Source: Candidatus Gottesmanbacteria bacterium
GTDB lineage: Bacteria > Patescibacteriota > Microgenomatia > UBA10105 > UBA927
Direction of reading: 5' to 3'
Assembly: GCA_963701185.1 (NCBI GenBank)
Contig: OY969569.1
Location: forward strand, 549,486 to 613,485
Length of the DNA stretch: 64,000 nt
Positions 8,760-64,000 of this stretch are shown here, one piece after another. The notes beneath the pieces are model-generated. The model was given only the letters and a program-made list of their open reading frames with translations, did no database searches and was not told the origin of the DNA. The translations under genes and the position numbers were made by a program. Each line of letters begins with the position of its first letter. The stretch's first letter is position 1.

Positions 8760-8970
8760 ATAACAATAGTCGCTATCATAGCACAAATCATTCAATTTCT
8801 GATAAAATACACTGGAAGCCCGGGTAGTTCATCGGTGGAACGCTTTCTTGGTAAGAAAGAGGCAATGGGTCCAATTCCCATCCCGGGCTCCAAATGTACA
8901 GAAGTAACTATAAACTGATATAAAGTTACTAGAAACTTACATAAACTAACAATAAGTATAGAATAAAAGT

Positions 8971-9816
8971 ATGAGCAAAGCTAAAAAAATATTGGGTGTG
9001 ATCATCAGATTTTTTGCGGTTGCCATCCTTTCAATACTGTCACTTCTGAATCTGTTTGCAGTACTACTTGCACCATTATCTCGAGATATTTCTCAAATGC
9101 CTCAGATTGTATCCATACTTTATAAGATTTTTAATATTTTCTTCTTGGTTGTTTTTGTTTACTGCACTTATTTGCTCATTAGGAATAATCGAAAGTACTT
9201 GAAACTATCAGCATATTTTCTTCCGGCGTATTTTTTATTCATGACTATATATCGCTTTTTCTTTGTAACGCATGGTCAGTTTGAGGGCGCAGATTTTAGT
9301 AATTTTTTGTTTTTTTTGGCTCCGCTTGGTTTAATGTTCATTAGTTATAAATTGGAACCTGTTGGAATCAGTCAAGAAAACTTGCTGATGACAGACCATT
9401 CTGCAAACGAGCCTTTCTCTCCACTCCGGTATCAAGGATTTATAGTGCGAGGCTTGGCCAACATCATTGATCAGGTATTAGTTATTGTTCCATTTGTTGC
9501 AATAGCATCATTAACGAAAACAGGACCTGCCTATTCGGAGACATATATGACAGTTGGTGGATTGCTATTTTTCGCTTATTTGATAATAGCCGAGGCTGTT
9601 TGGGGACAAACTCTGGGTAAAAAGCTTTTTGGTATAAAAGTAATGATGCAAGATGGCAGAAAATGTACTGTGTTGGGTGCGATTCTTAGAAACGTTTTCA
9701 GGTTGATAGACGTGATATTTGGTGGATATTTGCTTGCAATAATTGTTATGACGCTTACACCCAGAAGGCAGCGGGTTGGCGATTTGATAGCTAGAACAGT
9801 AGTTATTAAACCTTAA
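8971..9816 (+). CDS. RDD-family membrane protein.
   Basis: Multi-TM N-terminal half and a C-terminal RDD-like region (RGLANIIDQVLVIVPF...RRQRVGDLIARTVV). Confidence 0.65.
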   Translation: MSKAKKILGVIIRFFAVAILSILSLLNLFAVLLAPLSRDISQMPQIVSILYKIFNIFFLVVFVYCTYLLIRNNRKYLKLSAYFLPAYFLFMTIYRFFFVTHGQFEGADFSNFLFFLAPLGLMFISYKLEPVGISQENLLMTDHSANEPFSPLRYQGFIVRGLANIIDQVLVIVPFVAIASLTKTGPAYSETYMTVGGLLFFAYLIIAEAVWGQTLGKKLFGIKVMMQDGRKCTVLGAILRNVFRLIDVIFGGYLLAIIVMTLTPRRQRVGDLIARTVVIKP

Positions 9817-10149
9817 AGTTTTAAGATTCGGTCTCTGCGGCTAAGGTGGATCACATTTTGTGCCATCAGCTCCCTAAAAAGGTACGTTCACCGCAGAGAT
9901 CATTCGGTACCCAAATATTACCATATTTTTCTATCTTTGCGCCGTTTGCCAAATACTTCTAGAAATAAAAATGGATTTATTTTCTCAAGATAGTCTTTAA
10001 AGACATTAAGTTGTAAAATCAGATCAGCTGTAACGTAATAGCGAAGACCAATTTTAACAGCAGTAATAAGTGGAATATGAGGGTCGAGTAGATATTGTTT
10101 GATATACTCGTCCTGGCTAAATAGGTCCGAGCCAATTACGGTATCCAGC

Positions 10150-45734: not shown

Positions 45735-46349
45735 ATGTCAAAACCATACTATTCCGTCATTCTCCCGATCCGCAACGAGGAAGAATCCCTGCCGCAGCTT
45801 TTTGCCGAAATAGAACAGGCGTTTGCCGGAAAACAGTATGAAATCATTGCCGTCGATGATGCATCGGGGTATGCCGATCATCCGGGAAAATGGGAGGCAC
45901 TCCGGGCCGGCATAGACCGGGCAAAGGGATCGGTTGTCATCACGATGGATGCGGACCTCCAGGACGATCCAAAGGAAATAAAAAAACTTCTTGTACCCGG
46001 TTTTGATGTGGTGTCCGGATGGCGTTCCCCCCGCAGGGATGCATTCTATAAAATTGTCCTCACCCGTATCGCCAATCTCCTCTTCGGATTTAAAGATTTT
46101 TCAAGTCCCTACAAAGTCTATCGAAAAGACGCACTTGCCCGGCTTCCGAAAGAAGGATCACTCCTTCGGTATTCATATCTTTTTGCCCGCAAATTCGGCA
46201 TGCGTATTGTCGAGGTGCCGGTTTCTCATCGGCCCAGATTGTACGGAAAATCAAAATTCGGAGTTATCAAATACTTCCGGATTTTTTATGATCTAGTCCT
46301 CCTCTCTTTGCTATTTCGCGGATCAGGAAGACTGGAGAAACGTATATGA
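45735..46349 (+). CDS. Family 2 glycosyltransferase (polyprenyl-phosphate sugar synthase / DPM1-like).
   Basis: YSVILPIRNEEESL, AVDDASG, and VVITMDADLQDDP (DxD) blocks. Confidence 0.8.
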   Translation: MSKPYYSVILPIRNEEESLPQLFAEIEQAFAGKQYEIIAVDDASGYADHPGKWEALRAGIDRAKGSVVITMDADLQDDPKEIKKLLVPGFDVVSGWRSPRRDAFYKIVLTRIANLLFGFKDFSSPYKVYRKDALARLPKEGSLLRYSYLFARKFGMRIVEVPVSHRPRLYGKSKFGVIKYFRIFYDLVLLSLLFRGSGRLEKRI

Positions 46350-47443
46350 TTCCCGTATCCCGACCGCTTCCTGCGCCACACACGCAATCATATCTTATTG
46401 ATTGTGCGCGATCCGGCTGGTTTTCGTCTCACGGACCGTATGTAGCGAGGTTTGAACAGGCATTCGCCTCATACCTGGGTATTTCCCATGCCGCAGCTGT
46501 CCCCAGCGGCACCGCCGCACTACATCTGGCTCTTGCGGCCCTGGATATCCATAAAGGAGACGAAGTCATCGTCCCCACATTCACGATGTTTTCCCCGGTT
46601 GCGGCAATTCTGTATACCGGTGCCACACCGATCTTTGTCGATAGTGATCCCCGTTCATGGACACTCGACGTGACCCACGTTGCACAAAAGATAACGAAAC
46701 GGACCCGTGCAATTCTTGCTGTCCACATCTACGGTCATCCGGCGGACATGGATCCGCTCCGGGCACTCGCCAAAAAACACAATGTCTTTCTTATCGAAGA
46801 CGCTGCAGAAGGGTTAGGCGCGCTCTATAAAGGAAAAAAAGTCGGAACACTCTCAGATATCGCGTGTTTCAGCTTTTACGCAAATAAGCTGGTCACGACC
46901 GGCGAAGGCGGTATGGCGGTAACTAATAGTATACGTCTTTATACCCGCATCAAGAGCCTTGCGGACATGGCCTACCACCCGAAAAAACGGTTTCTCCATA
47001 CGGATCTGGGATTTACATACCGGATGAGCAACATGCAGGCTGCGGTAGGCCTCGCCTATCTTGAAGAAATTGAGAAAACGATTCAGAAAAAACGCGCGAT
47101 TGCATCGTTGTACAACCGGCTTTTGACAGACGTGCAGGACATTACCAGACATGAACAGGAATCCTGGGCGTCGCCCGTATGGTGGATGTACGGCATTCTT
47201 ACCCCCAATCGCGATGAGGTGAGGAAGAAATTATTTGCGCACGGCATAGATACCCGTGATTTCTTTGTTCCCTGCCACCGCCAACCGGCTCTCGGCAAAC
47301 TCGGGGTCCGTGCATTCGGACACTTTCCTGCTGCAGATATGCTCTCTGCCCGAGGCATCTATTTGCCATCAGGACCTGCTATCGACGACCGTGATATCCG
47401 TACGGTCTGCCGAGCGATCAAAAAAATCTATGCAGCGTTGTAG
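46346..47443 (+). CDS. DegT/DnrJ/EryC1/StrS-family PLP-dependent sugar aminotransferase.
   Basis: The VPSGTAALHLAL and ILAVHIYGHPADMD blocks and a FSFYANKLVTTGEGG (PLP Lys) block, typical of ArnB/WecE-like enzymes. Confidence 0.85.
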   Translation: MIPVSRPLPAPHTQSYLIDCARSGWFSSHGPYVARFEQAFASYLGISHAAAVPSGTAALHLALAALDIHKGDEVIVPTFTMFSPVAAILYTGATPIFVDSDPRSWTLDVTHVAQKITKRTRAILAVHIYGHPADMDPLRALAKKHNVFLIEDAAEGLGALYKGKKVGTLSDIACFSFYANKLVTTGEGGMAVTNSIRLYTRIKSLADMAYHPKKRFLHTDLGFTYRMSNMQAAVGLAYLEEIEKTIQKKRAIASLYNRLLTDVQDITRHEQESWASPVWWMYGILTPNRDEVRKKLFAHGIDTRDFFVPCHRQPALGKLGVRAFGHFPAADMLSARGIYLPSGPAIDDRDIRTVCRAIKKIYAAL

Positions 47444-48626
47444 ATTGTGTGGTCATCAGACAAAAGCATTTCTTGATTTAGGGCGCGTGCCGCTCCCGGA
47501 AGAATTCCGGCTGAAAAAAGATAGAGAAAAACGCATCATCACCTATCCCCTGGGGCTTTCCTATTGCATCCGCTGTTTCCATGTACAGCTGACACGACCC
47601 GTCGGGGCGGATCCTATTTACAAAAATAATTATTTTTATGATTATTCCGTTACCGCGGCAGGACGCGCCCATTGGCAACAGTTAGCACGACTCCTGGGGA
47701 GCACGCTCACCAAAAAAGATCTTGTCGTTGATGTCGGCAGTAATACCGGTACGCTGTTATCCTATTTCAAAGCGTCGGGCTTCCGAATTCTCGGCGTGGA
47801 TCCGGCGGGAAAATTGGTCCGTATCGCCCGCGCAAACGGTATTCCCACCATCAACGCATACTTTACTCCCGCGATAGCACAAAAAATAGTGAAACAATAC
47901 GGCCGGGCACGTGTCATTACGTGCACGAATGTTTTTGACCACGTTGCGGAGCTTGACCGGATCACCAAAGCGTTCCGGCTGCTTTTGGCACCCGGCGGCA
48001 CCCTTGTTATTGAAGTGCCCTATTTCTACCGAATGCTTACAAAATGTACTCATATTGTCTACCACCAGCAAATCGACTATATGATGCTTACCCAACTCGT
48101 TTCGTATTTCCGATCATTCGGTTTGACGGTCGTTGATGCCCAGGAAATCCCTCTCCACGGCGGTTCGATGCGACTCTATGTGAAACATAAAGGAAACGCG
48201 ACCAAACGCCTCGGACAACTTCTTGTCCATGAGAAAAAAATCATATCGCAGTATCCAAAAAGGCTTGTGCAATTTGGCGAACGGGTACTCCATCAACGGG
48301 ATGCCTTTGCGACCGCCATCAAAAAACTCAAAAAACAACACAAAACGATCGCCGCCGTCGGGGCATCGGCCAAAGGCATCACGCTTCTGAATTATTCCGG
48401 TCTGGGGCCCACAGACATCGCTTTTATCACCGAAAAATCTCCGCTTAAAATCGGACGGTTCACGCCAAACGGCATACCGGTTGTGAAGGACGGTATTCTT
48501 CTGACACGCCAACCCGACTATGCCATCCTCCTTTCCTGGAATTTTGCAGGAGAAATCATGGGTCATCTTACATCTTATACCGGACACTGGATCATACCTG
48601 TCCCTTCCCTACGGGTACTATCATGA
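47430..48626 (+). CDS. SAM-dependent sugar C-methyltransferase-like protein with an N-terminal zinc ribbon.
   Basis: MQRCRLCGH...CIRCFHVQL Cys4, VVDVGSNTGTLL (SAM motif I), and the C-terminal domain typical of NDP-hexose C-methyltransferases (TylC3-like). The start is at an internal Met overlapping the DegT 3' end. Confidence 0.65.
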   Translation: MQRCRLCGHQTKAFLDLGRVPLPEEFRLKKDREKRIITYPLGLSYCIRCFHVQLTRPVGADPIYKNNYFYDYSVTAAGRAHWQQLARLLGSTLTKKDLVVDVGSNTGTLLSYFKASGFRILGVDPAGKLVRIARANGIPTINAYFTPAIAQKIVKQYGRARVITCTNVFDHVAELDRITKAFRLLLAPGGTLVIEVPYFYRMLTKCTHIVYHQQIDYMMLTQLVSYFRSFGLTVVDAQEIPLHGGSMRLYVKHKGNATKRLGQLLVHEKKIISQYPKRLVQFGERVLHQRDAFATAIKKLKKQHKTIAAVGASAKGITLLNYSGLGPTDIAFITEKSPLKIGRFTPNGIPVVKDGILLTRQPDYAILLSWNFAGEIMGHLTSYTGHWIIPVPSLRVLS

Positions 48627-49612
48627 ATATTCTGTTTTTATCCCGGAAACGATCACAAGATATCGGTGGATTAAGCCGGTTTATCCTGGAGCTTACCCGC
48701 TATTTTCCCGACACCGACTGGCGGCGCCACATTGATTGTATTCACACGACAGACGCGACACTCATGCTGTTGGGCGTCTTTCTCAAACTATTATTCCGGG
48801 CTCCTCTTACGGTTACCGCCCACGGCAAAGATATAACGTGGCCCAACGCGATCTATCAAAAGATATTCTTCCTCTGCAGTCCATTTGTCAACGCGTGGGT
48901 CGTTGACAGCGAAGCTGCAGCTACTTTGCTCAAACGAAAGGGCGCCAAAAACATTCACATTATCGCGCCCGGCATCTCTGTCAATCACATAAAACAACAT
49001 ACACCGCTTGCACGTCCTGCATTTGACGGGAAAACGATACTGACAACTGTCGGAAACCTCGTTCTCCGCAAGGGTCATGTGTGGTTTATCCGACATGTTC
49101 TTACAAAACTCCCGTCACGCTTCATATATATAATAGTCGGAGCGGGAAAAGAGGCAAAACGCATCCATGAGGCGAGTGTACAAAAACGTGTACACCAGCG
49201 TGTTTTTTGTTTAGGGCAGCTGGACAACGGATACCTTGCATGGCTTTTTACCCGCGCACATATTTACGTCGCTCCGAATCAGCACGTTCCGGGTGATTTT
49301 GAAGGATTTGGCATCGCGGCCGGTGAGGCAGCGGCCATGGGACTTCCGGTGCTGGCAAGTCGTATTGACGGCCTCCCTGCGGTTATTCATCACAACAAAA
49401 ACGGGCTGCTCGTCCAAACAACACCGAACGCGTGGGCTCGCGCCATTCTGTCTATGGAATCCCCCAACGCACGCACCGCCTTAGGAGCAAAAGCACGAAG
49501 ATATACAAGGGTACACTTTTCCTGGAAAAAAACGGTCAGAGAGTATTCCGACCTCTTCCGAGAAGCCGCCGGTAAAAGGAAATTGTCCCCGAAGCGGTTT
49601 TTTCCCACGTAA
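48623..49612 (+). CDS. Family 1 (GT4-like) glycosyltransferase.
   Basis: C-terminal EGFGIAAGEAAAMGLPVLASRIDG (E-x7-E GT4 motif). Confidence 0.75.
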   Translation: MNILFLSRKRSQDIGGLSRFILELTRYFPDTDWRRHIDCIHTTDATLMLLGVFLKLLFRAPLTVTAHGKDITWPNAIYQKIFFLCSPFVNAWVVDSEAAATLLKRKGAKNIHIIAPGISVNHIKQHTPLARPAFDGKTILTTVGNLVLRKGHVWFIRHVLTKLPSRFIYIIVGAGKEAKRIHEASVQKRVHQRVFCLGQLDNGYLAWLFTRAHIYVAPNQHVPGDFEGFGIAAGEAAAMGLPVLASRIDGLPAVIHHNKNGLLVQTTPNAWARAILSMESPNARTALGAKARRYTRVHFSWKKTVREYSDLFREAAGKRKLSPKRFFPT

Positions 49613-50672
49613 GCAGACGGGCCTTTTGGCGGCTTACTTCACCAAATTTTGTCCGGTTTTTAAGCGAGTTTTCAATCTTTTTCGCCAACTCGTGAGGGTC
49701 CGTGGGTTCAACGATGTACCCATTCTCCCCATCTTTCAAAATATGAGGGTCTGCTGCGTCCGGCGAAAGTAACAGTGCCAAACCGTAAGCTGCAGCTTCA
49801 TGTGCGGCGAGAGCGACCCCCCCTTCGGCGACTGACGGAAGCACAAAAATATCGGCTGCAGAGAAATACGGCGAGGCGTCTTCAATAAATCCAAGAAACC
49901 GGGCGTTTGACGGCGCAATGGATTCCAAAATTTTCCGCTCTTTCCCTTGTCCGATAATAACCCCTGCAACATGTTTACGTTTTTTTTGAAGAAAAGCAAG
50001 TGCATGCAGAATCGTGTCGACATGTTTACGGGCAACCAGACGCCCTACGTAAAGAATCACTGCCGGTCTCCCGGGTATGGCGGGCCTGTTGCGACGCTGT
50101 TTTCGAACCCGGGGCGCAGCCAAAGGAACGACAGACATTGCTTGACCCGCGAGTGTATAGCGTTTGACAACATATTGCTTTTCACTTTCCGTATGGAACA
50201 GAAGCCCGTCGGCATGGTGAAAAATAAATGACTCCGCCATAATAAGAGGTTGATATATCGATCGTTTTATCGGCGGCGCGTACTGCGCCATTTGGTCCCA
50301 CGTATTATGTACGGAAACCACTATCCGACCGATATTTTTCGGACGAAAAAGAAGAAAAAATAGTGCGGTGAGTTGATTCGCATGTAGTATATCAAATTGT
50401 TTAGTATGATATCGTACTATAAAGTAAACATACTCTAAAAATCCTAATAACAGCTGGTTGCCAAAACAAAATGGCACCAGGTGAATGCTGACCCGCCGAA
50501 CTGATTTCCAGTAGTGCTTCCGATTGCCCCGTTGCTCCGCAAGCACGGTGACGTTCATCCCTTCCCGGGCCAAATTGGTCACTAATTCCTTCCCCCACAC
50601 CCCCTGTCCGCCGATAAATGACGGATAAAAGTCTTCCGTAGCAAACAGTACCCGCAGCGCGTTTTTTTTCAC
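49536..50672 (-). CDS. Family 1 (GT4-like) glycosyltransferase.
   Basis: LFATEDFYPSFIGGQGVWGKEL N-terminus. C-terminal SVAEGGVALAAHEAAAYGLALL and NGYIVEP. Confidence 0.75.
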   Translation of the reverse strand: MKKNALRVLFATEDFYPSFIGGQGVWGKELVTNLAREGMNVTVLAEQRGNRKHYWKSVRRVSIHLVPFCFGNQLLLGFLEYVYFIVRYHTKQFDILHANQLTALFFLLFRPKNIGRIVVSVHNTWDQMAQYAPPIKRSIYQPLIMAESFIFHHADGLLFHTESEKQYVVKRYTLAGQAMSVVPLAAPRVRKQRRNRPAIPGRPAVILYVGRLVARKHVDTILHALAFLQKKRKHVAGVIIGQGKERKILESIAPSNARFLGFIEDASPYFSAADIFVLPSVAEGGVALAAHEAAAYGLALLLSPDAADPHILKDGENGYIVEPTDPHELAKKIENSLKNRTKFGEVSRQKARLLTWEKTASGTISFYRRLLGRGRNTL

Positions 50673-50704
50673 ACCGCTAGTGTACCATATGGTATACTTC
50701 GCCC

Positions 50705-51370
50705 ATGACTGGGTACCGTTTCACTGAACACATAAAAGGGTATGCCTTGGGCGCGACGCTTCAACCCTGGAGGCCGCAATTTACCACAATCATCTCATGG
50801 GTGCCGGAAGGATCACGTGTACTTGACATCGGCTGCGGCGACGGCGTTTTGGGTGTAAAACTCATCCGGGAAAAAAACTGCCGCGTGTGGGGATTTGACC
50901 TGGATCCGACCGGTGTAGCGGAGGCAAAGCGTAAGGGGGTCCATGCCGTCACTCACGATGCCAACATGTCATTTCCCTACAAAGCCCGGCAGTTTGATAT
51001 CGTCATCTGCAACGAACTGTTGGAATTTGTTTCCGACCCGAATCTGGTCGTCTCCGAAGCCCTGCGGGTTTCCAAAAAAACGGTCATCATGGAGTTTCCG
51101 AATTTCGGATTTTGGTTGTACCGGCTGGAGCTGCTTTTGGGCCGATTCCCGCGGCTTGCCCTCTACGGCCACCGGTGGTGGAACACCCGGCAGATAAAAT
51201 TTTTCAGCTACCATGATTTCCTTTCATTGCCGGTCATGAAAAAAGCATACGTGTCCCGTATTGCCGGCATAGACTGGCGCAACCGCCGTGTAAGTTGGTT
51301 TGCTTCCCGCTTCCCGAATTTTTTTGCCCGCAGCGTCCTTATCATACTGGAGAAAAATACCCGCCTGTGA
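50705..51370 (+). CDS. Class I SAM-dependent methyltransferase.
   Basis: VLDIGCGDGVLG motif I and the DIVICNELLEFV motif II/III region. Confidence 0.7.
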   Translation: MTGYRFTEHIKGYALGATLQPWRPQFTTIISWVPEGSRVLDIGCGDGVLGVKLIREKNCRVWGFDLDPTGVAEAKRKGVHAVTHDANMSFPYKARQFDIVICNELLEFVSDPNLVVSEALRVSKKTVIMEFPNFGFWLYRLELLLGRFPRLALYGHRWWNTRQIKFFSYHDFLSLPVMKKAYVSRIAGIDWRNRRVSWFASRFPNFFARSVLIILEKNTRL

Positions 51371-52038
51371 CGACAACGATTCTTATTATCGCCAAAAACG
51401 AATCGCGGGGCATCAGGCACATCATCCGGTCGGTGAAACCATACGCGGATGAAATTATTGTCGTTGACGGCCGTTCCACCGATGCCACGGCAACGCTCGC
51501 TCAAAAAGAAACCGGTATTGTGCTCTCCGATCATGGGAAAGGCCGCGGCGACGGCGTAAAAACGGGACTGGCGGCGGCATCGGGAGATATTGTCGTCCTT
51601 TTTGATGCAGACGGATCGCATAATCCGAAAGATATCCCGACACTGACCGCACCCATCAGGCACGGAAAAGCGGATATTGTCATCGGATCGCGCCGCACAG
51701 GAGGAACGCTTGATACAAATAAAGGAGTGGACAGCCTCATCCGCTCTCTGGGAGCCGACATATTTGCCTATCTGGTGAATCGCCGGTTCGATACGCAATT
51801 CACTGATATCCTGTTCAGCTTCCGTGCAGTCCGGCGGCCCGTCGTACCTATTCTGCGTCTTACCGCCGACACATTCGCCATAGAACAGGAAATGGTCATC
51901 TCAGCACTGCGCCATCGCCTTCGGGTCCGGGAAATACCCATGAGGGAATTTGCACGTGCGTGGGGCAGCTCAAAACTGGCGACAAAAACAGGTATTGGGC
52001 TTCTCGTTACACTTCTGTGGCAGTTATGGGGACCGTGA
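51367..52038 (+). CDS. Family 2 glycosyltransferase.
   Basis: ILIIAKNESRGI, IIVVDGRSTDAT, and VLFDADGSHNP (DxD) blocks. GTG start overlapping the upstream stop (GTGA). Confidence 0.75.
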   Translation: MTTTILIIAKNESRGIRHIIRSVKPYADEIIVVDGRSTDATATLAQKETGIVLSDHGKGRGDGVKTGLAAASGDIVVLFDADGSHNPKDIPTLTAPIRHGKADIVIGSRRTGGTLDTNKGVDSLIRSLGADIFAYLVNRRFDTQFTDILFSFRAVRRPVVPILRLTADTFAIEQEMVISALRHRLRVREIPMREFARAWGSSKLATKTGIGLLVTLLWQLWGP

Positions 52039-53548
52039 CAGATCGTAAAGATATAAATCCGCGTTATCACTGTGCACCGCATCCTTCATGGCCCCCATAC
52101 GGGTAAGCTGTCCGAGAAAATATTTTTCTTCGTCCACCGGTCCCCAGTTGTAGACGTGAGAAAATAATACCCACACGCGGGGGTTTCCCCGTAATTTTGC
52201 AAGATCTTGTGCATACGCAGAGAGATCTGTCGTCCGGGAAATCCCGACAACATACTCTGATGGTTGTATCCCATACCGGTCAGAGTAATAGGAAAACGCA
52301 TAGGCGCTGGCATAATACAAATACAACGTATCACCGGTTTTCCGGTGCGTTTGGTAATAGGAAAGAAGCGGGGTAATAACCTCAAACCGTTCCGGATGCT
52401 GTAATCTGTAGAAACCCAGGTAGGATGTATTGATGACGAGTCCTGCCACAAGCAGCGCGCTTACCACACGCATGCTTACCCACGGACCATGCCATGCCCA
52501 CACGCCGATCTGCCACAATCCGTACGTCATAAGAAGGATCAGTCCCGGGGAAAAAAACAGCAAAAAACGTCCGGAAAAAGGATAGTAGTGCAGTGCTGAT
52601 GCAACAAACGCCAGAAAAAGCGGCAGAAATAACAGAACCAGCAGTTTTGGTTTGGTGCGGGAAAGATACCACGCGCCCACCGTCACGCTCACGACCCCGA
52701 TCGGCCAAAAATCGATGCCTCCGGGCCGGCGGAAAAATTGTACCACGGTATCCGCATACCACGCCCAGTCCGCAACCGACCGGATGGGAAACGGGGCATA
52801 AAAATCTGTCCAAACGTCCCGGTAGCGTCCGTAGTAGGCGCCCAGGGTGATGCCGCTTTGAACAAGAAAGCTTATCAGCCATCCCATACTTATCCCTACC
52901 CACACAAAAAACAGACGTCCGTTTCTCTTTGTCAGACTGTCTATCATTCCGACTATTCCGATTGCCGCTAATATAAAGACGATCGCCTGCGAAAACCACA
53001 GGCCCGACTATCCCCAACATACCTATGGTCGCAAGCATACGGCCCGTTGGTTTGTGGGTAGTGATAAATATCCGAACAGACAGCAAGGTAAGAAATACCC
53101 CGACGGTCATATCCAACGCGTACGGTTTCACTTCAGATGCATAATAGATAAGAGGCGCTGAAAAAACAAAAAGCAGCAGCGCCATATGCGCAAACGCCAC
53201 CGGCAGGACATCAAGGGCCAAAGCCGCCATCCCTCCCAGCGACACAAAACTGACAACGAGCGGAAATGCACGTAAGACAAACTCATCTTTCCCCGCGAGC
53301 GTTACCAGAAGTTTCTCAATGATAAGAAACCCGATCGGCGCCTGCTGTTCATACTCCAGGGGAGCAAAAAGGCCGCTGAATGATCGTGTGAGAATGTTCA
53401 TCGTCAGCATAGCCTCATCAAGCCATAACGGACGATGGGAAAGATACTGGGAGAACCGGAGAAGAATTCCCGTCACAATAAGTATCCACAGAAGTTCTGC
53501 GGGGTGTTTTCGCATAAAATTACTGTAGACCTTCAACCTGAATGACAT
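52024..53548 (-). CDS. Polytopic GT-C type glycosyltransferase (GT39 / PMT- or ArnT-like), split by a frameshift near 52990.
   Basis: The N-terminal ORF (53548 down to about 52995) has 5-6 TM helices and becomes low-complexity nonsense after about 190 aa. The in-frame hydrophobic continuation FSQAIVFILAAIGIVGMIDSL joins the second ORF. The switch is at GTGGTTTTCGCAGG. Confidence 0.55.
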
Positions 53549-55602
53549 GTATTAATTTTGCACAACCGGTATGTGTTATGTCCCAAAACCGTACTGTGTC
53601 GCCTGCCGTACCGGGAAATGAAAGCGTGGCTGATACATCGGAAGATTGAGAAATCCACGGAATCATATAGGTTTCATTTTTCCCGTCGCCGATACTCCAG
53701 ACGAGGTTTTGTTGAGTAATACACCGGATATCGTCTGCCGATACGGAAACATTCAGTATCCGAAGGGCATTGGGAATACGAACGTCCACCCGATCGGTCC
53801 CGCGAAATACTGACGTCTTCGCACGCAGTACGTCTGTTCCGATCGTTTGCCGCGTACCCGTCATCTTTGTGTGCGTACTGTCATTTTTCCAAATTTTGGC
53901 GATCACGACGCCGTCCACTTTCACCTCGTACACCGGCTTAACAAACGTTTCCAGATAGTTATAGGGAAAAACTGCCGGCGGTTTAGGATAGACAATGGAA
54001 GCGATGTATTCCCCTTTCCCGTCAAATCCGGAAAAATACGACCCTATCCGTATGTCCGGCCGAAGCCAGGTCGGCGAAAGAGCAAGCATCGTGCCATCCA
54101 GATGTGCCAAACGTGCATCTTTTTGGGCATGGGCATCCATCCATGACGCAAGCTCCCGGTATGGCGCATCATAAAGCGTTTCCCACGTATACAATCCGAC
54201 GGATTGGGCCCCTTTGAGACCTCCGATAAACGAATTGAAATAGAGGTGTTCATAGGGATGCAGCCGGACCAGCAGCACCACGTGCACGAGGATAAACATG
54301 CCAAAAAATATTCCGTAGAAGATACGCTTTCTTACGCGCTTCAGTATCCATGCACTCCCCGCCCCGACCAATACGGCAAATGCGGGGAGAAACTCCATAA
54401 AATGTCTGATCGATCCGAATACTTCGGAGGTCTGCCAAATAACGCGAATGAAAGGCACAATAAACCAAAGAGCGATAAGCAACCCCGTCGCATTTTTCGC
54501 GGTATATTTTTCTGAATATCAATCCGACGGCTCCTAGAGATGCCAATATCAGCATAATTGGCGGCGACATGGAAAAGAAAAAAAGCACGGCCTTGGCGTC
54601 AAACCCGCCGAAGAGCGGGGTCGGAGACGGCTGTTGTACCCGCAGATCCCGTACGGCAAGCGTTGCATAATAACTGAAGGTATTCAGAAGTTTATATACT
54701 GTTTGTGTCCAATAAAACGGATATGCAAGAATAAGGAGGATAAACGGGATGATGACGCAAAGGACGCCATACAGAATTAATTTTCGGAACGTAAAACGCG
54801 TATGTAATTCAGACGTATACCATATCCATATGGTCCACGGTACCAATGCAATCGGCGCAAATAGAATATTCCATTTTGTCCCCAATGCCATAAAGACCGA
54901 AAGTATGCACAACACGAGCCAATCGACGGACAACCGTCTGGTGACGGTAAAATACCAGGAAACTACTGCCATCGTGTAAAATCCCATCTGCACCGGATCT
55001 TTGATATTAAAATGGCTCTCCGCAAATATCACGGGATACATTGCCAGAGATACGACCGCTATGATTGCGGCAAATCGTCCAAAAGCATCCTCAACGAACA
55101 GATAGACGAATACCAATGATAGTGCAACGACGATAAGAGAATATACCTGATATCCGTCCACGTCCGACAGAACGCCGAGCCATTCATATGTCACCCGGTT
55201 GACCGCCGCCATAAGCATGTCGGATACGGCAGGATGTCCCTGATTTTCCGTAAGCTCCCATATGTTTGCTGTCCACGCATCGTTCTTATAGATGCTGATG
55301 CGGCGGCCTGCGGCAGTTTCTTTATTTTGATATGGAGAGATTTGCACGACAGGAGAAAAGAGTTCTTCTGACGCATTCGGCTTATAGACAGAAATCCGCT
55401 GCCCGGGGGTAAACATGACCGGAGAACGGGCGGCAGGGATACCAAACTGTCCGGACCTCCCCAGGATACGCTCCAAAAAATATTGCCCGCGCAAAAAATG
55501 GAACGGGCTGTCCTCATGCATGCCGTAGTGGGACATGGTTCCCACACCAACAATAAAGAAGGCTCCGGCGAGAATCCATGGAAGAAATTTCTTCATAAAC
55601 AC
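53520..55602 (-). CDS. Second polytopic GT-C (GT39/PMT-like) glycosyltransferase with a large C-terminal extracytoplasmic domain, split by a frameshift near 54480-54540.
   Basis: The N-terminal ORF has more than 9 TM helices and DE-containing first-loop motifs, and its tail after GLIFRKIYRE is nonsense. The second ORF continues in frame upstream of its TTG (KNATGLLIALWFIVPF). The switch is at AAAAATGCGACGGGG. Confidence 0.55.
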
Positions 55603-55662: not shown

Positions 55663-56283
55663 CTATGGACCGCCGGCAGATAGCGTGGCTGACGCTGAAG
55701 CTTCCACGGTTACGGTCGGGACCAGTGTGGGGATGGCGGACGACGTTGCGGTTACGCCAAGGATATCCGAGACCGGTGGTACAAGAAGAGTCGACGTCGA
55801 ACCGGTTCCGTCTATACTCTTCCCCACAATCGTCCTCCCGCCGGAAACCGTCAGGGCAAACCAGTTGTATGTCAAATCCCGCGGCACCGGACCGTTAAGG
55901 ACTATGCTAAAGCCGCTGGTTGTGACATTGGTTACGGCGGCCTGCACGCCCTCGGCAAGAAATGCGCTGTTTGAAGCTTGCGGCAACACCAACGTAATGG
56001 TGACAATAGGCGGTGTATCAAAGGAACGTTCAAACGGTACGTCGACACTCATGGTGGACTTCGGAATGACCGCAATACCAGCCGAGTCTGAACCTACCGT
56101 CACGTGTCCCTGGAATATGACATCACTCAATACTTTCAGCACACCGTTGACGGTTACCTGCCCCTGAACAATAAGATCCTGTACAAATGTCGCAATCGCA
56201 TTAACAACAAACGGCCCGTTAAATGTGCTTGCTCCGGAGGCCACTATGTCGCCCGTAACTGCAAGTCCACGGGTGGTAAACAA
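55663..56283 (-). CDS. Probable frameshifted C-terminal continuation of the collagen-like giant protein (beta-helix-like repeats), or a separate small paralog.
   Basis: It overlaps the giant ORF's last 40 nt in another frame. The [23 protein letters not shown] / [10 protein letters not shown] segments resemble the giant protein's C-terminal [27 protein letters not shown] units. Confidence 0.45.
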
Positions 56284-59200
56284 GATCCGACATGTTGGGC
56301 ACTTGCCGTCGCAAGCGTACTATATAATGCAGACAGATTTGAAAGTGTGTCGGAATAGATTTCAAGTCCTTCAATCTTGTTGGCCCGGATGCTATCCGCT
56401 GTCACCATCCCTTTAAATACGGCGTTCCCTGAACTATCAACGGTAAAGATATCCGCTCCCGCATTTCCTTTCACCGCCAACAATCCGTTCTCCGGCGCCA
56501 GTTCAATGGTAAGCGCATTGTTGATAGGCCGAATGACGTTAAGTCCCACCGTATTGATTTTCGCTTGCTGGGATTCTATAAACCCGGCCTTTAAGTTTGC
56601 GATGACGCTTTGCGCCCACGCAGAAACAGCGCTCACGGGAGACCCTGTCTCTGTCTTTGCCTGATACGTGGTAAAGTAATCGACATTTGCATCCGGATAG
56701 AGGAGCACTTTGTTTAACATGTCCCCGGTAAGGTCACCTTGACTGGCCAGCTCATACCAATCGGTTTGAACTCTGGCAAGCACCATACCCACGTCTGCGG
56801 GAAGCGATTGCTGCGGCGCATCAGGGTCCCGCGTTTCCACTCCGGTCCACGGTTCCAGGGCCCAGCCGACAATCCTGCCCGTGGTCGTGGCTCTTGCGGC
56901 TATCCCGGACACTGAAGATATTGTCAAAGGATCGCCCGGCGAAACGGGACCATTTTCAAGGGATGTTTTCACCCACACCTGACCGAGCATACCGACGTCT
57001 GCATACCGCGGGTCGCCTTTTTTCGTTAACTCTTCCCACCCTTGCTGTACATAATCATTAAATCCTGTCCCGCGGGTGGTCACAACACCCAACATCCAAT
57101 CTCTGGAATTTGCATCCGCTTTTGTTACTTTGTACGTTGAAGAGCGGGATACCATCATGACATCGCCGGGCTCGCTTCCTCCGACGGGATCCTGATCGAA
57201 ATATTCTGAATAGTCAGCCCAGCTGTTGACTCCCGACTTAAATGTGTATGAATTGGAGCCGCTGCGTATCCAAATACGGCCGCTGGTTGCGGCGGTACCG
57301 ACGTTCCCCAGTTTCAACTCTCCGCTTACCACGTTTGTGGCAGCAGGTGCCGCACCGTTATTATCAAAAAAGACCACGTGCGTATCCGCCACGGTGTTAC
57401 CGAGGTTAATGGTGGTTGCGTTGGCACCTGTTGCCGTTCCAGTACCAATATTGACCGTCACGATACCGCTTGCAGGACTACCGGTACCGATATTAAGTGT
57501 ATTTGCGACATTTCCTGTACCAATGGAAATGATTTTGGCGTTAGCGCCAGTGCCAATCGAGAGCGCACCTGTTCCGTTGGTATCAATAGAAAGAGTCTCA
57601 TTGGCATCCGCGGTCGTGATGGTGGCACCGGCATCTCCTGCATAACCCAAAGTCAGATCATCGGTATAGAGATCTGTTGCAATAGCTGCATCCTGATAGA
57701 GATACGTTCCACCGTCAATCCAATAATTTACACCGCTACCGGTAGCTCCAGTGGGGCCGGCGGGTCCGGCCGTTCCCGTAGCGCCGGTTGATCCTGATGG
57801 ACCGGTAGCCCCGGCCGTTCCCGTGGCTCCTGTTGCACCTGTGGGGCCGGTAACTGCCGCACCCTGATTTCCCGTGGCTCCGGTAGAGCCTGTGGGACCA
57901 CCTGTTCCGGCTGATCCGGTTGCTCCGGTAGAGCCTGTGGGACCAAAGTTTTGTCCGGTTGGACCGGTAGCGCCGGTGGGACCATTGGCCCCTACACCTC
58001 CACCTGTTCCAGTGGCTCCGGTTGCACCTGTGGGGCCGGAAGAACCGACACCGCCTTGTGTTCCTGTCGCGCCGGTTGCGCCTGTGGGGCCGGAAGAACC
58101 GACACCGCCTTGTGTTCCTGTCGCGCCGGTTGCACCTGTGGGGCCGGAAGAACCGACACCGCCTTGTGTTCCTGTCGCGCCGGTTGCGCCTGTGGGGCCG
58201 GATCCGCCTGCGGTTCCCTGGGTTCCCGTGGCTCCGGTTGCGCCTGTGGGGCCGGATCCGCCTGCGGTTCCCTGGGTTCCCGTGGCTCCGGTTGCGCCTG
58301 TGGGGCCGGAAGAACCGACACCGCCTTGTGTTCCTGTCGCGCCGGTTGAACCGGTGGGACCGGAGGATCCCGCGGTTCCCTGGGTTCCCGTGGCTCCGGT
58401 TGCGCCTGTAGGACCGGATCCGCCTGCAGTTCCCTGCGTTCCCGTGGCTCCGGTATTACCTGTGGGACCCGATCCTCCCGCTGTTCCCTGAGTGCCCGTG
58501 GCTCCGGTATTACCTGTGGGACCGCCTGCTCCGCCTGTACCGGCTGATCCGGTGGCTCCGGTGGCTCCGGTTGAACCACTAGGACCAGTCGCACCTGCAG
58601 CTCCGCCTTGTGAACCGGTTGGACCGGTTGCGCCGGTTGGACCGCCTACACCATTTGCACCTGTGGAACCCGTTGGGCCATTAGTTCCTGTGCCTCCGGT
58701 TGAACCGGTGGGGCCACCTGCTCCGCCGCTTCCGGCAGTTCCCGTGCCTCCCGTTGAGCCTGTGGGACCGGATCCTCCGGCTGTTCCTTGAGTACCCGTG
58801 GCGCCGGTTGACCCTGTGGGACCGGATCCTCCGGCTGTTCCCTGAGTACCCGTGGCGCCGGTTGAACCGGTGGGGCCACCTGCTCCGCCGCTTCCGGCAG
58901 TTCCCGTGCCTCCCGTTGAGCCTGTGGGACCGGATCCTCCGGCTGTTCCTTGAGTACCCGTGGCGCCGGTTGACCCTGTGGGACCACCTGCGCCCGCTCC
59001 ACCTGCATTACCTGTGGCACCAGTTGAACCTGTGGGACCGTTACCGCCGGTGGCGCCTGTTGAGCCTGTGCGTCCTGTTGGGCCATTGGCACCTGCTGAT
59101 CCCGTGGCGCCGGTTGAACCGGTGGGACCGGAAATTCCGGCAACTCCCGAGGCACCGGTTGCACCTGTGGGACCGGATCCTCCGGCTGTTCCCTGAGTAC

Positions 59201-60881
59201 CCGTGGCGCCGGTTGAACCGGTGGGTCCGGCGCCTCCTCCTGCCGCTCCTGTGCCGCCGGTTCCGCCTGTGGGGCCTGCAGTCCCGTTATTCCCGGCATT
59301 CCCTGTGGCTCCGGTTGCTCCTGACGGACCGGCCCCGCCACCGATTCCTGTCGCGCCTGTGGATCCTGTCGGACCACTCGCTCCGGCTGACCCGGTCGCG
59401 CCGGTTGAGCCGGTCCGTCCTGTTGGGCCATTTGCTCCTGCAGATCCCGTGGCGCCGGTTGAGCCGGTGGGACCGCCTACACCGTTTCCTCCGGCTGATC
59501 CCGTGGCGCCTGTTGAACCTGTGGGGCCACCGGCACCTGCTCCTCCGGCAGTTCCCGTGCCTCCGGTTGCACCAGTCGGACCGTTTGTGCCGGTTGCACC
59601 CGTGGCGCCGGTTGAACCGGTCGGGCCGGCATCACCATTTGCGCCGGTTTCCCCTGTTGCACCCGTGGGACCCGAACTGCCGGACGCACCGCCGCTCCCT
59701 CCTACACCTGTTGCACCGGTCGGGCCAGTGACGGACGTTCCGTTTGTTCCGTTTGTCCCATTCGTTCCGTTTGTTCCGTTTGTCCCTGCCGGACCCGTGG
59801 CGCCGGTTGACCCCGCACTGCCGATCCCGCCGGCTGACACAAGCTGAGTAAGCAACTGGGTTAACCCTCCCTGAACATTCGTAAATTGGGGAATAAGTTG
59901 AGCGAGGTTTCCGACAGCTCCTACGGCAACCCCCTGCGGAGATCCCAACCTGACAGTCCCCTCATCCAAATCTCGCTGGGCAACGACGGCGTTTGATACA
60001 AACGCCCCCGGTTGACTATACTCAGGATTTTCGTCCGTCGTAACACCTAATATATTAATGCTCATATCTCCTTGGCTCTCAAAATATAATTTCAGTATCT
60101 CCCGCTCCGTCAATAATGTTGCCGGATCAGGCGAAGTCAAAGTCGGGGTAGCTACCACCTGCGATAGTTGACCCCGCGGCGATACATACCCTGTTACCTG
60201 CTTTCTGTCGGCATATTCAAACAAACGAAACCCTCCGACCAATGCTCCGTTGCGGATGGTCGCGTCGCGGAATTCCGCCGGCAAAATCGTCCCATCCGGC
60301 AACCGTATGCCTGCAATGAGCGGATATGCTATGAATGCCGTTTCACGCGCTCCCTTTTTCGTCATAAACAGGACGGATTTATCCTCTATTTCCGCCATCA
60401 TGCCGTAATCCCCGTTGGGATAATGGAGGGTCACATCTCCATCAAAATGACCGTCTATCAGAATGCCCTGATCTACCACTGCATAGGAATACGATCCGTC
60501 AATCCGGGTAACGACGACAAGAAACGGTCCGGAAAAATCGCTTTTAGCAAACACATTCGCCGTGAGATTGGATATCGGCACGGGAACGGTTTTTTCCGGC
60601 GGCCGCAGATCCAGAGAAGTGATGTACATGGGGACATTCACCCCTCTACGGAAAACCGTGATGCCTACGGACAAGAGAATGATAATGAACAGCAATGCAA
60701 AGATGGAAACTGTCCCTGTTTGCGTTTGTATGAATTGGTACGAAATGGTACTTTTTTTAGTATAAACTGGTAAAAACCTGCAAATCCGTGTTTTTGCAGC
60801 CACAAACCACCTTCCTAATAAAATGAGAATGCCGCCCGAAGGCGGATTTGCGGAGGGTACCGAGGTAAAAAAAAACCTCAT
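56244..60881 (-). CDS. Giant (at least 1545 aa) membrane-anchored collagen-like protein. It has an N-terminal anchor and globular domain, about 780 aa of Gly-X-Thr triplets, and a C-terminal domain of about 410 aa.
   Basis: TM helix [18 protein letters not shown]. Uninterrupted [22 protein letters not shown]... (G-X-Y with Thr at Y, Pro/Ser/Ala at X). The C-terminal domain has Gly/Thr/Asn beta-helix-like repeats. The 5' 190 nt may be non-coding (alternative starts TTG at about 60695 or ATG at about 60628). Confidence 0.8.
57480..59790. repeat. Collagen-like coding repeat tract (9/18/27-nt periodic GGN-CCN/NCN-ACN units).
   Basis: Seen directly. Long near-identical blocks (e.g. GTGGGGCCGGAAGAACCGACACCGCCTTGTGTTCCTGTCGCGCCGGTTGC at least 3 times). 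It generates many Pro/Val-rich shadow ORFs on both strands. Confidence 0.8.
60815..60845 (-). terminator. Terminator/attenuator-like hairpin CCGCC-UUCG-GGCGG followed by CAUUCUCAUUUUAUU on the minus strand.
   Basis: 5-bp GC stem with a UUCG tetraloop and a U-rich tail, 35 nt downstream of the regulator stop and inside the annotated 5' end of the giant ORF. Confidence 0.4.
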
Positions 60882-62797
60882 GGACTCCCTCCCTCGCCCA
60901 CGGATGTGTGCTTCAAGGCATAGCTCAGTTCAAATATGAGCGCGGCAACTATGATACAGAGGATAATGAAACTTGCGACGATAATATTTGCCGTATTGGA
61001 AAGAGCATAAATTTTGTTAAAAGGGGCCTTCAGTGCAATCGCCCAATGGAGAGAGGAGTTGATGCTTGTATACACAATCAGTGAATAAATACCATCGTAG
61101 GTATCTCCCTGGGCCATGCCTGTTTTTCCCTGAATACCCAGCAGTGTCGGATCATTGGGCTCCGTATCCGTACCGATAAGCGAGGGAACCGGATGCATGA
61201 TCCGTTTCCCATGGCTGTCCAAAACCACAATATATTCTCCGCGATCCGTCACCGCGATCTTTTGCAATCGGGCGCTGATGGCATCCAGATCGACAGATGC
61301 GCCGAGTATTCCGACAAATTGCTTATCAGCGGTAAAAAGCGGCATTGAAATAATAATGACTTTCCGGTGCGCACGGTCTACGAGCGACTCAAAAACATCG
61401 GAAATATAGACGTTACCGGTATCCCGCGCCCGGATAAAGTAATCCCGGAACGATAAATCCGTCTGATCAAATGTCCCCAAGGGATACAGGAAAAGCCCTG
61501 TGCCGTTCTTATCCAATATGACAATCCGGCGGATACTGTCGCTGCTGTCAAACATGATGCGGCTCAAATTCATCAGTTCCGTTGTGTTGTTCTTTTGTAC
61601 CGCGGCAACCAGATCCGGATTTATGGACGCGGTCATGACAGTAGATTTAACGCTCTGGATGTCGGTTTCAATCATTGTACGGGCAAAATCCACTTTCTGA
61701 GCATCTTCCCGTTTGACGACGGTAACGACATTAAGCTGGCTGACATACACCATCAGAATACCTATAATGATCACGGCAGTTATTACTCCGAACATGCCGA
61801 TGGCAACACCCTGTGCTTTTCTGTTCCTGGTCATTGAGAGATTTTTCCATGACGGCAGATACATGCACGTCAACCCGACGATCATGAAATAAAACGAACG
61901 GGCCCAAAATTGATGTTGCGCGAATGAAAATCCCAGAAGGAAATACGTACCCGCCGCCACATACGAACAAACCCAAAATAGCGCTTTTTTCCGGTACAAC
62001 CCAAGCCAAAGGAGCAGGATAAATCCGAAACAGACAAAGGATAATCCTATTCCCAGGACAACCGGCGTCACATGCAGCGCGGCTGTTACAGCCATCACGT
62101 GGGAATCCGCGGGCGCGGCAAATGCCACGACCGGCGCGACCAAAGCCAGAAGTGTCAGAAGCAGGACAAACGGCATGATCTTCCCTAAACGGACAAACAG
62201 GGTAAGTCCGGTGATAAGCGTCAATGTTCCGTAGATACCTATGGCATCAATATCCCGCACCAGCACTAAAATGATCGTCATGATGATCCCGGCAACCACC
62301 AGGAGGCCGCGGAATACTTTGTGCCATGTCTGATGGGTATCGTACGCGAGATTGGTTAAAAGTATCCCTATTCCCCCGCCTATTAAGAGGATTCGTATTA
62401 TGGACACGACCGGCGTAACCGACTGAACATACACGGTGTCAAACGTCTGGTTAAAAAGAAACAACGCGGCACCGGATATGACTGCAGCAATACCGACAAA
62501 CCAATCAAAGATGTTTGCCGTCACGCCATGAGCCCGGCCGAATACTGAAAAAGAAAACCGCGATGCACTTTCATGCGGGGTGATGACTTCCGTATCCTGT
62601 ATCGCGACCGCATCGGTCATCGGACTTTGACCCTTGGAAATCAAAAGCAGCCGGTGTAATTCGCTTTGCGGAATGCGGAATCTTCCCTTTCCTACTCGAA
62701 TTCCCTTAATGCGATGTTCTTTGAGGAAGGTATAAATGCTGTTGGTGCTGTACCCCAATATTTCTGCGATTTGTTTGACGGTGTATGTGGCAGCCAT
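60878..62797 (-). CDS. Membrane-bound one-component regulator: N-terminal excisionase/MerR-like HTH, an 8-TM domain, an extracytoplasmic dCache-like sensor, and a C-terminal TM.
   Basis: The HTH is [37 protein letters not shown]. There is a long polytopic segment. The double Cache pattern is ...[13 protein letters not shown]...DLSFRDYF...[10 protein letters not shown]...VIIISMPLF...[10 protein letters not shown]...[16 protein letters not shown] final TM helix follows. The stop overlaps the giant-gene ATG (ATGA). Confidence 0.7.
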
Positions 62798-62937
62798 AGC
62801 CTCATTTTTTCTAAATTATTACAAGTTTACACAACTCTATATCTACTATGTAATAATAAATGGAGTGTTGTCAATAGGGTAATTAATCTTATCATTTTCT
62901 TATCATCCATGATATAATCACGAACACATACAACCAT

Positions 62938-63873
62938 ATGCTCTCACTTTCCTACACGTCTACACTTCAATTACGGGACACGCTCAATACCGTCAACCGA
63001 CTCCGGTCGCAGATTCTCACATTGCCCATTCCGCCGAAAACCGAAGCCAAACTTGCCTGGGAAGGCACGGCAATCCGGACATGGGCAACGCTCTCACTTG
63101 CGGGCTATGATATCCAGAAACATGAAGTAGCAACGATTCTTGCCAATCCGGTCAAGCCGACCCCTGCGGTTGCACGGATCCTAGGATTGCGGCGAACCTA
63201 TGATGCCATACACAGGGAATGGCGCGCCAATCCGCGACCTGTCAGCCTGTCGGCTCTGGAAATGCTGTATTCCTTAAGTTGCCCGCACGATACGGGATCA
63301 TTTTCGATCATTGAACCCGCACTCAAAGAACTTCTCTCGTATCTCGGAGCCCAGGAAGAACATCCTGTCATTGCCGCCGCCATTGCCCACATGTATATCA
63401 TGACGATACCGAAATTCACTGAGCCGGGAATATGCGCGCGACTGACCCATTATTTGTTTTTAACCAAATACGGCTTTGACATCCGCGGGTGGATCACTCC
63501 CGAACGGATCTGGCAAACGGATGCCGCAACGTATACGCGCTTCATCAACACCTACCAAAACGATCATACTATCACAAAATGGATCGAATATATTGCCCAA
63601 TCCATGCAAACGAATCTGGAAGCACTCGCCGCTGATATCACGGAATCCCGATTCCACATCGAATACCCGGCGTCATTCTGGACACTCTCCGACCGGCAAA
63701 AGGAAATTCTCACGCTTATGAATGTACCCAACGCCTCAATTACGAACAGATACATACATAAACGGTTCAAAGTATCTCAAATCACCGCCTCGCGGGACCT
63801 TGCGAAACTCACCGCTCTGGGACTTCTCTACCCGCACGGGAAAGGGAGGGCGGTGTACTATACGAAGATCTAG
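62938..63873 (+). CDS. Fic/Doc-fold-like protein with a degenerate FIC motif and a C-terminal winged HTH.
   Basis: HMYIMTIPKFTEPGICARLTHYL sits where HPFx[DE]GNGRxxR would be (His kept, catalytic core lost). The C-terminal LSDRQKEILTLM...ITNRYIHKRFKVSQITASRDLAKLTALGLLYPHGKGRAVYY is a wHTH. Confidence 0.45.
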   Translation: MLSLSYTSTLQLRDTLNTVNRLRSQILTLPIPPKTEAKLAWEGTAIRTWATLSLAGYDIQKHEVATILANPVKPTPAVARILGLRRTYDAIHREWRANPRPVSLSALEMLYSLSCPHDTGSFSIIEPALKELLSYLGAQEEHPVIAAAIAHMYIMTIPKFTEPGICARLTHYLFLTKYGFDIRGWITPERIWQTDAATYTRFINTYQNDHTITKWIEYIAQSMQTNLEALAADITESRFHIEYPASFWTLSDRQKEILTLMNVPNASITNRYIHKRFKVSQITASRDLAKLTALGLLYPHGKGRAVYYTKI

Positions 63874-64000
63874 CTACTTTACTGTCGCGGTACTCCCCAA
63901 CATTGTGGCTTTTGTTCGAAAAAATTGTTTCAACTCATCAAGTGTTACCGGCGCAATCATGCGTGGTAAGGCGGTAAAATCTTCGACCGTAAGGATATCT

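Follow-up and report, generated by a model that had tools for sequence, protein, structure and literature searches.

The DNA examined here, referred to as the window, is a stretch of 64,000 nucleotides (nt) from Candidatus Gottesmanbacteria bacterium (GenBank assembly GCA_963701185.1, contig OY969569.1, positions 549,486 to 613,485), and its subject is a long collagen-like repeat tract on the minus strand. The tract lies inside a large open reading frame (ORF) whose product is composed, from the N-terminus, of a transmembrane anchor, a conserved N-domain, a collagen stalk, a β-rich region with 'NIGTG' motifs and a domain resembling the C-terminal chaperone of the phage phi29 protein gp12. An H-type lectin is displaced into another frame behind it, a gene with HTH_17 (helix-turn-helix, HTH) and dCache_1 domains precedes it, and a glycosylation cluster lies downstream. 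The coordinates of these features are collected in Table 1.

Table 1. Features of the locus, in window positions; residues (aa) are numbered along the 1,545-residue ORF.
Feature	Position	Strand	Residues and remarks
Predicted fibre-protein ORF, 1,545 aa	56244..60881	-	ATG at 60881; 3' end truncated by frameshift
Single predicted transmembrane / signal-anchor helix	60651..60710	-	aa 58-77 (20 residues); from hydrophobicity
Conserved N-terminal domain, predicted extracellular	59832..60644	-	aa ~80-350, ~270 aa; from homologues
Collagen-like Gly-X-Y tract	57732..59831	-	Y mostly Thr; from Pfam, triplet count and unit analysis
Most homogeneous sub-array, period 54 nt	58005..58524	-	18-aa unit, with a variant ending ...GGVGSS
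162-nt higher-order duplication	58683..59040	-	2.2 copies, 90% matches; 128-nt exact copies at 58696..58823 and 58858..58985
62-nt exact repeat	59164..59225	-	other copy at 58813..58874
9-nt micro-repeat coding (GTN)x5	59737..59783	-	N-terminal end of tract
Post-collagen β-rich region, repeated 'xINIGTG' motifs	57345..57731	-	aa 1051-1179; distal tip in the event of self-cleavage
Domain homologous to phi29 gp12 / Peptidase_G2 C-terminal intramolecular chaperone	56727..57344	-	aa 1180-1385
D-Y-S-E motif, predicted self-cleavage site between A1222 and D1223	57204..57215	-	aa 1223-1226
1-nt frame disruption (frame 0 to frame 2)	56285..56300 (approximate)	-	separates H_lectin region from main ORF
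Displaced C-terminal part: β-rich linker and H-type lectin	55663..56283	-	Pfam H_lectin, E=8e-8
Upstream partner gene, HTH_17 - transmembrane region - dCache_1, 639 aa	60878..62797	-	from Pfam; stop overlaps the ATG of the fibre ORF as ATGA
Glycosylation cluster, ~10 kb, downstream of the fibre gene	45735..55602		from Pfam

The Gly-X-Thr tract and its reading frame

The tract occupies residues 351-1050 of the ORF, a span of 2,100 nt or 700 residues, and contains 231 Gly-X-Y triplets in 6 runs, separated by 5 register breaks of one or two residues each. Pfam Collagen (PF01391) matches it with 171.5 bits against a cut-off of 27.2 (E=3e-51), placing the product among the prokaryotic collagen-like proteins, and in Tandem Repeats Finder it shows periods of 54, 108 and 162 nt, the highest score being 574. 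The collagen-like repeat is strongly non-random, and no second collagen tract was found elsewhere in the window. Five of the six runs have Thr as their commonest Y residue; over the whole tract, 23% of the residues are Thr and 6% are Pro, while only 0.6% are charged (D/E/K/R). With a GC content of 68%, as compared to ~47-52% in the flanks, the tract forms a GC island.

A first-pass annotation of the window had placed a near-perfect tract of ~2.3 kb at 57480-59790. The repeat is indeed present, though shorter and more degenerate than this description suggested. The left edge had been set ~250 nt too far to the left and the right edge ~40 nt short, and the segment 57480..57731, inside the earlier left boundary, codes for the Gly/Thr-rich, non-collagen 'NIGTG' region of the C-terminal module.

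The tract divides into 43 units starting with GP[TSA]G. Twenty-two of them consist of 18 residues (54 nt), nine of 15 residues (45 nt) and four of 12 residues, the others ranging from 6 to 23 residues, in rough agreement with the blocks of 27 to 60 nt described at first pass. Those blocks had also been called near-identical, which proved an overstatement: the 22 units of 54 nt share a mean pairwise nucleotide identity of 68% (median 67%), and among their 231 pairs at least 95% identity is reached in seven and full identity in four. Near-identical DNA is limited to two blocks, one with a period of 54 nt (58005..58524), holding identical or 1-nt-different units and 77-nt exact repeats, and one with a period of 162 nt (58683..59040). 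Recent duplication or gene conversion is evident from the identical 54- and 162-nt units. The longest exact direct repeats of the tract measure 128, 77, 77, 62 and 61 nt, and no 151-mer within it is repeated. All of the long exact repeats (52 to 128 nt) recur at offsets that are multiples of 9 nt; matches of 20 to 26 nt alone depart from this spacing, and even their offsets are multiples of 3.

The Gly-X-Thr frame runs on without a break into non-repetitive flanks for which homologues exist, and is therefore the coding frame. The PVAPVGP-rich and RRL-rich ORFs in other frames are confined to the tract and are shadows, as the first-pass annotation had held. The public gene calls of a related locus (L084) include three such shadow-frame ORFs within the tract.

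On the N-terminal side of the tract, residues 58-77 alone exceed 1.6 in mean Kyte-Doolittle hydropathy over 19 residues, with a peak of 2.9. The N-domain has no match in Pfam, NCBIfam or PHROG, and a protein search with it returned a single match, P0013 (68% identity), whose locus is L083. It is also present in the Gottesmanbacteria proteins of L014 (36% identity) and L031 (33%), and in eight metagenome loci, among them L085 (69%) and L086 (58%). The ~55 residues that precede the transmembrane helix (PPSGG.L.LLG…A.K.R…FLP.YTK) are conserved at the protein level even in the 36%-identical orthologues, at 60711..60881 (minus strand) of the window, ~10000..10170 of L083, ~2139..2330 of L014 and ~1500..1650 of L086. 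Since L014 has no ATG upstream of this stretch, the placement of the start codons or the nature of the segment itself is ambiguous. The orthologue in L086 (58% identity) bears an in-frame stop inside the N-domain (2004..2006), after which the frame is open into the collagen tract.

Tract length in orthologues and assemblies

Full-length orthologues, in which the N-domain, collagen tract and C-terminal module form one contiguous ORF, were found in two Gottesmanbacteria metagenome-assembled genomes (L014 and L031) and in a 1.17-Mb contig (L091). With the same N- and C-domains, they carry 471, 404 and 360 triplets, respectively, as compared to 231 in the window, a comparison at the between-species scale, the closest relatives being 58-69% identical in the N-domain and none of them conspecific. 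The variation in length that the first-pass annotation had expected among strains is thus borne out between orthologues of different species, with no such result for strains.

The tracts frequently interrupt assemblies. Among the 23 collagen-bearing loci examined, the contig ends inside the tract in 14 (L001, L083, L004, L009, L011, L013, L018, L085 to L090 and, as a borderline case, L016), an N-gap falls inside it in five (exactly 100 N each in L010, L012, L019 and L084, and 25 N in L038), and the tract is contiguous in four (L014, L031, L037 and L091). Masking by a tool was considered as the origin of the N-runs and rejected, given the blocks of 100 N, the shift of reading frame across the gap in L010, L019 and L038, and the same 100 N in the ENA record of L084; the N-runs are treated here as scaffold gaps. 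In L083, the dCache-HTH gene (8026..9940) is broken up into five small ORFs, the fibre gene is spread over several frames, and the contig ends within the collagen tract. Such splitting is typical of a noisy long-read consensus, and at a DNA identity of 68% this locus is useless for strain-level comparison.

The breakage can be followed to the nucleotide in a k=31 Logan contig (L001, run ERR10755943), which is 100% identical to window positions 59196..64000 and ends at 59196. The 31-mer at 59195..59225 occurs twice in the window, and that at 59196..59226 occurs once. As the latter is the last unique 31-mer, the contig stops exactly at the entry to the 62-nt exact repeat at 59164..59225. A degenerate 54-nt repeat with two recently duplicated blocks would thus lead de Bruijn-graph assemblies to fragment at this place. 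The longest exact repeats measure 89 nt in L031, 97 nt in L091, 128 nt in the window and 240 nt in L014, where the contig extends over 1.22 Mb.

These observations bear on the best-surviving alternative, namely that the gene is real and the tract length in the window is wrong, with identical units collapsed or mis-joined and the true stalk off by multiples of 54 or 162 nt. Exact repeats of 61 to 128 nt are present, a contig end or a gap interrupts the tract in 19 of the 23 related loci, the organism's own k=31 assembly ends at the 62-nt repeat, and a nearby frameshift, described below, indicates that the consensus has flaws. However, as no 151-mer is repeated, reads of 150 nt can in principle order all of the units. 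The frame and the Gly register are intact over all 2,100 nt, 30% of the tract (59196..59831) is reproduced exactly by the independent assembly, and a 16-residue motif that interrupts the tract is found again in a distant homologue (L019). The source contig, at 995 kb, suggests a long-read assembly, and long reads probably spanned the tract of the window. We therefore consider a wrong length unlikely, while the copy number in both homogeneous blocks is provisional. The early warning about assembly held in so far as the tracts break or gap assemblies; the problem documented is one of fragmentation and not of collapse.

The displaced lectin, the C-terminal module and the neighbouring genes

The main ORF stops at 56244, shortly after a 10-residue segment read in its own frame, and a second frame runs on with a 23-residue segment into the H-type lectin domain. 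In all of the homologues checked (P0005/8/9/10, L014 and L031), H_lectin is fused in frame, and SH3_3 often follows it. The repaired protein would be about 1,735 residues long and would end in H_lectin. In protein look-ups, neither the 1,545-residue ORF nor two start variants of the H_lectin ORF had an exact match. The site of the frameshift adjoins T3 and C3 runs, and it may be a consensus error in the 995-kb contig.

Alternatively, the gene could be a decaying pseudogene, in which the frameshift marks the loss of function and the repeat is drifting. The loss of a lectin that is fused in every homologue checked would fit such decay, and the ORFs that overlap at 52024..55602 suggest that the frame may be disrupted at further points nearby. 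Yet a 4.6-kb ORF with a perfectly kept Gly register is not what decay would be expected to leave, a single-base frameshift beside short T and C runs may have arisen in the consensus, and the start codon has kept its ATGA overlap with the gene upstream. On balance, a pseudogene seems improbable.

The C-terminal part of the ORF (residues 1051-1545) has homologues of 33-41% identity in Patescibacteria. NCBIfam and PHROGs searches of the C-terminal domain gave no match, and Pfam Peptidase_G2 reaches E<=0.01 in three of the 11 family members (4.1e-6 in the best case). A model of the 206-residue core (56727..57344), built from a deeper alignment, reached a predicted local distance difference test score (pLDDT) of 84. 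With this model, the top PDB matches in Foldseek are the gp12 C-terminal fragment 3gqh_A (E=1.4e-4) and the premature gp12 3suc, and the gp12 chains are followed by trimeric phage decoration proteins. Among predicted viral structures, the core has 42 matches, including a 'Preneck appendage protein' and phage 'Collagen triple helix repeat' proteins. A trimmed family profile (A4), used with hmmsearch against PDB, likewise finds 3gqh_A (E=2.2e-5), together with the chaperone domain of the Dpo31 tailspike, 28nb_A (E=1.1e-5). The profile of full-length homologues had been swamped by low-complexity GXT matches (uS2m, kinesin linkers), and a usable profile was obtained by BLAST-based but not by column-based trimming.

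In the profile alignment, the start of the released gp12 fragment (chain residue 1, DFAEYF) falls on DY[AS]EYF of the family, which reads A-DYSEYF in the window. The D and E of this motif are invariant in 15 sequences, the D being residue 1223 of the window protein. The C-terminal domain of gp12 is an auto-chaperone that is cleaved off after trimer folding (PMC3357383), and mature gp12* consists of residues 1-691 (PMC6542822). The resemblance to gp12 thus covers the core profile and fold, the D-x-x-E at the start of the released fragment, and the position C-terminal to a fibre, predicted to be trimeric here, and it is by homology to this trimeric auto-chaperone that the core is a candidate trimerising domain. 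In contrast to gp12, the domain of the window protein is internal: a coiled or β region and H_lectin come after it, joined in homologues by SH3_3, and there is no phage context. Strict membership in Peptidase_G2 was rejected, as the match is below the Pfam threshold and the domain is not at the extreme C-terminus.

An exhaustive profile search with the module found 15,836 cluster representatives at E<=1e-3, 1,297 of them also at E<=1e-30, and many of the module-bearing proteins are giant, with the module at the C-terminus. In a further 80 genome loci, the module follows collagen tracts of widely differing length or non-collagen stalks in very large ORFs; it is thus combined with stalks of quite different types. 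In five loci (L007, L025, L026, L030 and L033), it ends ORFs of more than 3,200 codons without a collagen tract. Many of the best-matching genome records, including L003, L006, L010, L012 and L013, are titled 'uncultured Gammaproteobacteria bacterium' in a family otherwise found in Patescibacteria, and their recorded taxonomy looks unreliable.

Since phage collagen-repeat proteins share the chaperone fold, a collagen stalk with a gp12-type chaperone amounts to a phage tail-fibre design, and we considered whether the gene encodes a phage or prophage tail fibre instead of a cellular surface protein. The core resembles many phage proteins besides gp12, collagen-repeat ones included, and the upstream gene carries an excisionase-type HTH_17. 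However, a tblastn search of 50,697 phage records with the C-terminal module gave no match, and the neighbouring genes encode glycosyltransferases and enzymes of sugar modification, none of them a capsid, portal, terminase or tail protein. A membrane anchor lies at the N-terminus of the protein, its dCache-HTH partner recurs directly upstream of the orthologues in L014, L031 and L083, and the breadth of the module, often C-terminal in giant proteins, also speaks against a phage origin of the gene. The prophage reading was therefore rejected as very unlikely.

The dCache-HTH protein, whose gene has thus kept its place in two Gottesmanbacteria loci and in L083, may be a membrane one-component sensor that regulates the fibre or is co-expressed with it. 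The glycosylation cluster comprises three GT2 glycosyltransferases, a DegT aminotransferase, a sugar C-methyltransferase, two GT1/GT4 glycosyltransferases, a MetW-like methyltransferase and PMT_2, and similar genes flank the orthologue in L083. Within 52024..55602 (minus strand), four long ORFs overlap in different frames (52024..52947, 52382..53548, 53520..54482 and 54250..55602), and the PMT_2 ORF appears to be out of frame in its tail; these overlaps may be further frameshifts or consensus errors. Farther from the fibre gene, 62938..63873 (plus strand) encodes a 311-residue protein with a C-terminal HTH (DeoR/HTH_11-like, phrog_5978). It adjoins a gene with an AbiEii toxin domain just past the end of the window (L001 1717..2376), and the two may form an AbiE-type toxin-antitoxin pair.

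A candidate collagen-like surface fibre

We interpret the tract as the collagen-like stalk, 700 residues of Gly-X-Thr type, of a large fibre on the cell surface of a Gottesmanbacteria-like member of the Patescibacteria (Microgenomates), and put the probability of this reading at about 0.65. In the mechanism that we propose, the gp12-like domain would trimerise and tether three chains in register, and the triple helix would then zip from the C-terminus to the N-terminus, as collagen nucleates at its C-terminus and zips towards the N-terminus (PMC11923368). The assembled rod would project from the N-terminal membrane anchor, its Thr residues possibly O-glycosylated by the neighbouring sugar cluster, and the distal end, with the β-rich tip, lectin and SH3, would bind a carbohydrate or cell-wall ligand. 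At the textbook collagen rise of 0.286 nm per residue, 700 residues would give a rod of ~200 nm. The stability of the stalk probably depends on Thr and possibly on glycans.

Several points weigh against this interpretation. The window protein scores 16.1 bits (E=0.0076) with Pfam Peptidase_G2 (PF11962), below the cut-off of 25 bits. The model of the full 495-residue C-terminal part was poor (pLDDT 47), and the core model was used in its place, its fold similarity to 3gqh_A being moderate (template modelling scores 0.47/0.58, root-mean-square deviation >6 Å). The chaperone-like domain is not C-terminal, as ~320 residues of the ORF and the H_lectin part follow DYSE, and self-cleavage between A1222 and D1223, if any, would release the lectin or leave it held non-covalently only. 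The frameshift before the lectin could mean gene decay in this organism. With almost no charge and only 6% Pro in the tract, the stability of a triple helix is unproven, and glycosylation of the stalk by the neighbouring cluster is suggested by gene neighbourhood alone, from which the place of the cluster in the system is also deduced. Finally, we infer the surface exposure and the trimeric state for a family known from sequences and models.

Among known systems, the closest functional analogues are BclA and Lcl, whereas the closest homologues of the non-collagen module are the phi29 gp12 auto-chaperone and the phage collagen-like fibres, which share the fold of its core. BclA is the nap glycoprotein of the Bacillus anthracis/cereus exosporium, in which a strain-specific number of triplets sets the filament length and the collagen region is glycosylated (PMC10470788). 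As in the window protein, which is likewise rich in GPT, a central Gly-X-Thr region lies between an N-terminal attachment end and a C-terminal domain, which promotes trimerisation in BclA (PMC10470788) and is a candidate for that role in the window protein, and BclA (1wck_A) is the sole collagen-containing PDB chain matched by the family profile, via GPT repeats only. The C-terminal parts differ: that of the window protein is gp12-chaperone-like with an H-type lectin, and fold and profile searches gave no match to the BclA C-terminal domain. In addition, anchoring would be by a transmembrane helix here and is by BxpB attachment in BclA, the organism here is a non-sporulating bacterium of the candidate phyla radiation (CPR), and glycosylation is here deduced from neighbouring genes. 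A BclA-type exosporium protein was accordingly rejected, the C-terminal core resembling the gp12 chaperone and phage proteins instead.

Legionella Lcl and Streptococcus Scl1/Scl2 are likewise surface proteins with a GXY stalk. They differ in their flanking domains, and Scl is anchored C-terminally, while the window protein is anchored N-terminally. Scl2 is rich in charged residues, in contrast to the almost uncharged, Thr-rich tract of the window. The stalks of Lcl and Scl form triple helices, and their polymorphic repeat number affects binding (PMC6460258). Collagen-like surface fibres of Pasteuria are implicated in host attachment, and their polymorphism is linked to infectivity (PMC7743900). 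Organism and domain context are unrelated in that case, the likeness being that of the GXY repeats.

Changes of stalk length would fit the proposed mechanism. Unequal recombination or slippage would alter the stalk without breaking the frame, as all of the long repeat offsets are multiples of 9 nt, and such in-frame changes would lead to the 231 to 471 triplets seen among orthologues. Repeat numbers in the collagen-like regions of BclA and Lcl vary between strains (PMC10470788, PMC6460258) and identical adjacent units exist in the tract, but a contingency locus with on/off phase variation or antigenic variation by slippage, which the first-pass annotation had raised, is the least credible alternative and was rejected on repeat arithmetic, because units of 54, 45 or 36 nt with offsets divisible by 9 always keep the frame and the Gly register and so predict no switching, most units are only ~68% identical and thus poor substrates for high-frequency slippage, and no within-species variation was found among the sequences compared, the nearest of which are 58-69% identical in the N-domain.

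Within the reading of the tract as a fibre stalk, a bolder proposal can be made, which we advance only tentatively. The locus may be the founding example of an undescribed class of host-capture fibres of CPR/Patescibacteria, in which a ~200 nm, probably glycosylated, membrane-anchored collagen rod would carry at its tip a module derived from phage tailspikes, with lectin and SH3 domains binding the host cell wall. Control of the fibre would lie with the dCache-HTH protein, co-transcribed with it and sensing the extracellular space, and in-frame repeat expansion would have tuned the reach of the fibre in evolution. By our estimate, a rod of ~200 nm is about as long as the CPR cell itself. Our literature search brought up no publication that links CPR or Patescibacteria with collagen-like proteins.

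Difficult assembly and possible variation in length are ordinary traits of a repeat; a candidate CPR adhesin is of more interest. As the tracts are systematic break points (19 of 23 loci), public protein sets hold mostly fragments that start with 'MTGPTG...' or shadow ORFs, and the domain architecture and size of the family are badly under-represented in them. How CPR bacteria attach to their hosts is largely unknown, and the conserved cassette described here, a membrane dCache-HTH sensor with a membrane-anchored collagen fibre that carries a phage-like chaperone module and lectin/SH3 ends, is a testable candidate for a long-reach adhesin.

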